The position numbers and the translations under genes are program-made. 64,000 nucleotides of DNA, taken from assembly GCF_003334785.1 (NCBI RefSeq), contig NZ_QOWV01000007.1; one strand, 5' to 3'. Shown piece after piece: positions 30,256 to 30,329 of this stretch. How positions within the stretch are numbered: position 1 is the stretch's first letter; every line of letters begins with the position of its first letter. The notes under the pieces are model-generated. The model was not told the origin of the DNA. It made no database searches and was given only the letters and a program-made list of their open reading frames with translations. The DNA is from Escherichia coli. Lineage in GTDB: Bacteria; Pseudomonadota; Gammaproteobacteria; Enterobacterales; Enterobacteriaceae.

Positions 30256-30258
30256 TGA

Positions 30259-30274
30259 CTGTATAAAACCACAG
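30259..30274. promoter_or_regulatory. LexA box (SOS operator) upstream of polB
   Basis: CTGTATAAAACCACAG matches CTGT-N8-ACAG, 4 nt after araD stop and 56 nt before polB GTG. Confidence 0.85.
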
Positions 30275-30285
30275 CCAATCAAACG

Positions 30286-30316
30286 AAACCAGGCTATACT
30301 CAAGCCTGGTTTTTTG
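30286..30316 (+). terminator. Hairpin plus T-run after araD (araBAD terminator / polB leader structure)
   Basis: accaggct-atactca-agcctggt followed by ttttt (about 30288-30315). Confidence 0.7.
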
Positions 30317-30329
30317 ATGGATTTTCAGC

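Follow-up and report, generated by a model that had tools for sequence, protein, structure and literature searches.

The SOS-controlled polB promoter of Escherichia coli is very probably nested within the araBAD terminator

The SOS operator and promoter of polB (dinA), which encodes DNA polymerase II in E. coli, are said to have been described by Iwasaki in 1990/1991, Bonner in 1990, Lewis in 1994 and Fernandez de Henestrosa in 2000. polB is a LexA-regulated, damage-inducible gene (PMC11228462, PMC6590174), and a reporter of its promoter is inducible by UV (PMC5999292). The araBAD terminator is a recognised element as well, and it is reported to belong to the weakest quartile of E. coli terminators (Lee 1986; strength measurement of Chen 2013). 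Two kinds of described system are close to the arrangement reported here. In phage phiX174 the terminator T_H overlaps the promoter pA, and the embedded promoter confounds the measured strength of the terminator. In the trp, pyrBI and his attenuators, a hairpin and a U tract lie between a regulatory site and a start codon. We found no direct description of the araD-polB spacer as such in the literature.

The window, that is the whole 64,000-nt stretch of E. coli DNA analysed here, carries an araD-polB locus of the K-12 type, and its positions 29560-30800 are 100% identical to MG1655 and to many other E. coli genomes. araD (29560-30255, plus strand) was annotated by identity to E. coli MG1655 and ends with the stop codon TAA at 30253-30255, as given by the sequence, the list of open reading frames and the annotation. 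The polB ORF, supported by the ORF list and the MG1655 annotation, starts with GTG and occupies 30330-32681 on the same strand, leaving a spacer of 74 nt (30256-30329). MG1655 coordinates were obtained as 96110 minus the window position, anchored on polB at 63429-65780 in the table of Kim et al. 2012. An earlier note, made from the sequence alone, had placed a LexA box and a terminator-like hairpin within this 74-bp spacer. Both elements were confirmed, with small corrections of their coordinates.

The 16-mer core of the LexA (SOS) operator, CTGTATAAAACCACAG, is located at 30259-30274 on the plus strand, within a 20-mer, GACTGTATAAAACCACAGCC, at 30257-30276; the assignment draws on the sequence, a pattern search, conservation and the literature. 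The core is a perfect CTGT-N8-ACAG palindrome. The box was indeed found immediately downstream of araD, although 3 nt after the TAA and not 4 nt as first noted. Its description as a strong match was overstated: a manual count gives 13 of 20 positions in agreement with the consensus TACTGTATATATATACAGTA, and the published heterology index of about 13 (table in PMC11228462) ranks polB with the weakest of the accepted SOS boxes. The spacer between the half-sites, ATAAAACC, is A/T at six of eight positions. Because the pattern CTGTN8ACAG has three matches in the window against 0.58 expected, such a match on its own is weak evidence for a LexA box. The two further exact matches, at 20484-20499 and 61790-61805, differ from LexA boxes in their G+C-rich spacers (TGCTGTGC and GACTTCCG) and probably occur by chance. 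It is by conservation and by the literature, not by its match score, that the polB box is real. In 56 aligned upstream regions of Enterobacteriaceae polB genes, the half-sites CTGTA.A.A....CA(G) are invariant or nearly so. Its reading as the SOS operator of polB is borne out by this conservation and by the published LexA regulation. The box does not differ from the known polB (dinA) operator: the locus and the 20-mer are the same, the gene is LexA-regulated and the heterology index is high.

The second element of the spacer begins 30 nt past the araD stop codon. Folding and cross-species comparison define a hairpin with the 5′ arm GAAACCAGGC at 30285-30294 and the 3′ arm GCCTGGTTTT at 30304-30313, both on the plus strand. 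The 10-bp stem contains five G-C pairs, encloses a loop of 7-9 nt (TATACTCAA) and is followed by U6, encoded by the T6 tract at 30310-30315 (plus strand). The spacer folds with -24 kcal/mol (z = -4.9), and 0 of 200 shuffled sequences were as stable. A hairpin with a T run had thus been correctly recognised in the earlier note; its approximate extent (30288-30315, with T5) is corrected to a stem at 30285-30313 with T6 at 30310-30315, and the distance to the polB GTG, close as stated, is exactly 14 nt instead of about 15.

The consensus terminator scan did not flag a plus-strand terminator in the spacer and returned a minus-strand reading only (30286-30312). The plus-strand miss is a limit of the scan, in which the longest stem consumes part of the T run, and not a property of the site. 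The minus-strand call arises because the near-symmetrical stem has an A tract upstream as well as a T tract downstream. There is no convergent gene, so that any bidirectional role of the terminator would involve antisense transcripts only. No Rfam family matched within 29900-30700 at E ≤ 1. In the 3′-end tables of Adams 2021 no end is present at the araD terminator, the only one in this region being an internal polB 3′ end at 63552, probably because the cultures contained no arabinose. The hairpin at 30285-30313 with U6 is the Rho-independent araBAD terminator, termination at this site being taken from the cited work and from the canonical form of the element. It shows no difference from the described araBAD terminator (Lee 1986, Chen 2013 and, reportedly, Stringer 2014): the hairpin and U tract are the same and it is weak. 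The earlier identification of the hairpin as the araBAD terminator is upheld by its form, by these citations and by its association with an adjacent araD across species, presented below.

What had been overlooked is a -10 hexamer, TATACT, in the loop of this hairpin (30295-30300, plus strand; C at -13), identified by conservation, spacing and its position relative to the transcription start. From the loop hexamer a start near 30307 was predicted before the table of mapped starts was found, and the mapped start lies at exactly that position. Kim et al. 2012 (PLoS Genet, PMC3415461, Table S1) list a polB transcription start site (TSS) at NC_000913 65803(-) with a 23-nt 5′ UTR, based on 2 reads from unstressed cells, apparently the lowest count in that table. 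Their flanking 51-mer, GACTGTATAAAACCACAGCCAATCAAACGAAACCAGGCTATACTCAAGCCT, of which the last base is +1, is identical to window 30257-30307, so that +1 is T30307 on the plus strand. The start is 7 nt downstream of TATACT, which occupies -12 to -7, and falls inside the 3′ arm of the hairpin. Since U is an unusual initiating base, the true +1 could be 1-2 nt away, still inside the 3′ arm. The SMRT-Cappable-seq and iModulon supplements contained no polB entry.

From the positions of the -10 and the TSS, the -35 region would be CAGCCA (30272-30277, plus strand), a weak element with three of six matches to TTGACA and a 17-bp spacer, sharing the last 3 bp of the LexA box. The box itself extends from -48 to -33, into the -35 region. 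A consensus promoter scan gave no match for a polB promoter in the spacer; this is explained by the weak -35 and is not evidence of absence. We take the CTATACT at the polB -10 to be sigma-S-like. RpoS stimulates polB, according to what PMC6590174 relays of Dapa 2017, and this fits a use of CTATACT by sigma-S.

E. coli genomes differ in the -10 element. A spacer exactly as in K-12, with TATACT, was found in 2457 of 5373 complete genomes, and the four variant alleles sampled (L082-L084; L003:2413-2506) all have the consensus TATAAT. K-12 and these four variants, five sequences in all, do not differ in the LexA box, in either hairpin arm or in T6. The TATACT/TATAAT polymorphism could alter the basal level of Pol II or its RpoS dependence.

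The same start-site table holds other entries around this locus (PMC3415461). A second TSS assigned to polB, also with 2 reads, is at MG1655 65946(-), or window 30164 (+), inside the araD coding region and 166 nt upstream of the polB GTG; its transcripts would include the whole terminator. Two starts belong to rapA (hepA). One, at 63588(-) with 21 reads (window 32522, plus strand), falls within the 3′ end of the polB ORF and has a 324-nt leader, and the other, at 63357(-) with 15 reads (window 32753, plus strand), lies in the polB-rapA spacer.

The mapped polB start determines which transcripts can contain the terminator. The polB 5′ UTR (30307-30329, plus strand) is the 23-nt sequence UGGUUUUUUGAUGGAUUUUCAGC, as read from the sequence and the TSS table. 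The mRNA begins with UGGUUUUUUGAUGG and holds the 3′ arm and the U tract only, the T6 tract forming +4 to +9 of the leader. Lacking the 5′ arm, it is therefore unable to form the terminator hairpin. The earlier note had instead assumed that polB transcripts must cross the hairpin, in one of two ways. According to the first, polB is transcribed from a promoter that reaches into araD, located either within the LexA box or before it, and the hairpin is an attenuator in the polB leader. A TATAAA inside the box (30262-30267) can be read as the -10 of such a promoter, and the minor 2-read start inside araD could be its product. However, the mapped TSS at 30307 is inside the 3′ arm and not upstream of the hairpin. 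Moreover, folding gave no alternative antiterminator pairing, only a mini-hairpin of the LexA palindrome and the terminator, no leader peptide was seen, and the region matches no Rfam family. The resemblance to the trp, pyrBI and his attenuators thus ends with the hairpin and U tract between regulatory site and start codon: unlike in those systems, the polB TSS is not upstream of the hairpin, and there is neither an alternative structure nor a leader peptide.

According to the second, polB transcripts induced by the SOS response begin before the hairpin, itself the araBAD terminator, and read through it. The hairpin is indeed this terminator, and it is reported to be weak. Stringer and colleagues reportedly observed in 2014 that transcription runs through the Rho-independent terminator behind araD in an arabinose-dependent manner and raises polB expression, though the transcripts concerned were those of araBAD. 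With the TSS in the 3′ arm and a conserved -10 in the loop, however, polB's own transcripts never hold a complete hairpin, and we consider read-through by them very unlikely. The earlier note had also named the opposite case, a start downstream of the hairpin from a promoter clear of the LexA box. The start does lie past the 5′ arm, but not past the whole hairpin, and the promoter does overlap the box, at the -35 region. The actual arrangement is a third option, absent from the two proposed.

Comparison across species separates the parts of the spacer. The sample comprised 80 polB loci of Enterobacterales, in each of which the positions of araD and of the polB start were determined; 56 Enterobacteriaceae sequences were aligned over the stretch between the LexA box and +24. 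No variation occurs in the LexA half-sites or in the T-A-T-x-x-T of the loop hexamer, whereas the stem columns vary. Of the 55 related Enterobacteriaceae loci that have a box, 53 show a distance of 36 nt from its start to the start of the -10; the remaining two show 35 and 37 nt. The box and the -10 are kept throughout the Enterobacteriaceae loci compared, with or without the hairpin.

The hairpin behaves differently. Of the 32 loci with an araD that ends no more than 170 nt from polB (araD-adjacent), 30 have a terminator-like hairpin. Of the 22 in which araD lies over 700 nt away (0.7-2 kb) or is absent (non-adjacent), only 8 have one; the difference has a Fisher p of 8e-6 when kinship is ignored. 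The median ΔG is -14.2 kcal/mol in the former class and -6.2 kcal/mol in the latter. Fourteen of the 22 non-adjacent loci have lost the hairpin and keep the box and the -10, and the species without it hold the two elements at the same spacing. In the Cedecea-type loci L031, L034 and L071, there are no ara genes upstream and both arms are gone, with the box and TATAAT in register; the divergent gene upstream of polB in these loci is presumably yabI-like, judging by its N-terminal sequence. The association with araD is strong but not absolute, as six loci with a co-oriented upstream ORF (putative genes) have no hairpin. Sequence upstream of the LexA box shows no conservation once araD is non-adjacent.

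These data bear on both ways of crossing the hairpin. A polB promoter partly inside araD is not needed, since conservation stops at the box in loci without an adjacent araD, and an attenuator would be missing in the 14 non-adjacent loci that nevertheless carry the box and the -10; across species the hairpin at polB is dispensable, unlike in the trp, pyrBI and his systems. A promoter upstream of the hairpin with attenuation in the leader is accordingly an extremely improbable account of this locus. Neither obligatory crossing of the hairpin nor the promoter in araD is supported, and the attenuator and polB read-through models were rejected because of where the TSS lies and because many species have lost the hairpin. 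This element thus serves araBAD as a terminator and does not attenuate polB, whose SOS-induced transcripts do not run across it.

Where the hairpin is kept, it is the pairing and not the sequence that is preserved, and this largely reflects a single clade-level event. In the Buttiauxella/Cedecea clade, a GTGGTC/GACCAC stem replaces CCAGGC/GCCTGG around TATAAT. In the E. coli register 79.6% of the alignment cells pair, compared to 25-58% with a slid partner, and cells with changes on both sides number 12 against 5.4 in shuffles, a value reached by 0 of 500 shuffles. This count underestimates the Buttiauxella-type stem, because the ungapped alignment places its 3′ arm one column off; that stem was judged by folds of the individual sequences.

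The arms that persist without an adjacent araD raise another reading, in which the inverted repeat that encloses the -10 also affects polB directly, at the DNA level through cruciform extrusion or supercoiling sensitivity of its promoter, or through the U-rich remnant of the 3′ arm as a translation enhancer for the GTG start. The arms are kept in 8 of the 22 non-adjacent loci, among them some without a long ORF nearby (L010, L035); in addition, the U tract belongs to the polB leader, and the GTG start has a weak Shine-Dalgarno sequence. However, in most of these eight loci a co-oriented ORF ends 5-11 nt before the LexA box and would need a terminator anyway, and the loci without arms hold an otherwise identical promoter. 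We regard such a role of the repeat as highly improbable. Taken as a whole, the comparison assigns the box and the -10 to polB, and the arms to whatever transcription arrives from upstream.

Several features of the surrounding loci were noted in the same sample. In Citrobacter, Kluyvera, Phytobacter, Buttiauxella and relatives, an insertion hot spot directly precedes the LexA box of polB, where inserts of 0.7-2 kb carrying unrelated ORFs of about 100-300 aa separate the araD stop from the box (L006, L009, L010, L012, L013, L019, L020, L025, L030, L032, L033, L035, L037, L042, L045 and L049-L051). The module from box to GTG always remains with polB. Erwinia, Pantoea, Mixta and related genera have another layout, with 18 nt from the start of the box to the -10 compared to 36 nt in Enterobacteriaceae (L053, L055, L056, L058-L064, L066-L068, L070, L074, L077 and L080, 50-75 nt upstream of polB). 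There the LexA-type box has a CAT right half (e.g. CTGTATAAATAAACAT), and the hairpin and an upstream araD are absent. A variant LexA box is present in Erwiniaceae, and likewise in Yersiniaceae. In three species (L052, L057 and L079) no LexA box was recognisable upstream of polB; the candidate in L052 is a 15-mer, CTG-N9-CAG, one base short of a LexA box.

Taken together, the anatomy of the spacer, its conservation and the mapped start make it very likely that the polB promoter is nested in the araBAD terminator, and that polB transcripts start in the second arm and never form the hairpin. The stem-loop at 30285-30313 with U6 would end araBAD transcripts in a Rho-independent manner. The polB (dinA) promoter would be built into this same terminator, its -35 overlapping the 3′ end of the LexA box, its -10 forming the loop and its +1, T30307, lying in the descending arm. 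From its site at -48 to -33, LexA would sterically block RNA polymerase at the -35 and at its upstream contacts. Upon DNA damage, cleavage of LexA would allow polB to be transcribed with its 23-nt leader, which, made of the 3′ arm and the U tract, would provide neither a terminator hairpin nor attenuation. Only transcripts derived from araBAD would carry the whole hairpin; most would stop there, and the weak terminator would let some into polB. The apparent paradox of an operator placed before a terminator disappears, because transcription of polB begins only within the 3′ arm. As with phiX174 T_H and pA, the terminator of the upstream unit and the promoter of the downstream unit share bases. 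Unlike in the phage, the araD-polB spacer has the -10 exactly in the loop, the +1 in the descending arm and a repressor operator just upstream.

It could be proposed that this nesting has been selected, with heavy araBAD transcription sweeping LexA off its operator, a deliberately weak terminator coupling growth on arabinose to Pol II levels, the inverted repeat making initiation at the -10 sensitive to supercoiling, and TATACT/TATAAT tuning the basal, sigma-S-dependent expression of Pol II. We consider this unlikely. Neither the SOS box of polB/dinA, nor the terminator of araBAD, nor the start of polB transcription is new, and their interleaving is neat but ordinary. Three modest points are added here: the register from box to -10, which is 36 nt in Enterobacteriaceae and 18 nt in Erwiniaceae, the frequent disappearance of the hairpin arms from loci with a non-adjacent araD, and the TATACT/TATAAT polymorphism in E. 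coli. For readings made from sequence alone, the locus is a caution that an operator upstream of a terminator does not mean that the regulated transcript crosses that terminator.

The significance is modest beyond a tidy annotation, yet it has practical sides. Measurements of how strongly the araBAD hairpin terminates may be confounded by the polB promoter that lies in it, and a deletion or replacement of araBAD that extends up to the polB start can abolish or change the SOS control of polB. More generally, a terminator and a repressible promoter can share 30 bp without interference, because the downstream transcript starts inside the hairpin.
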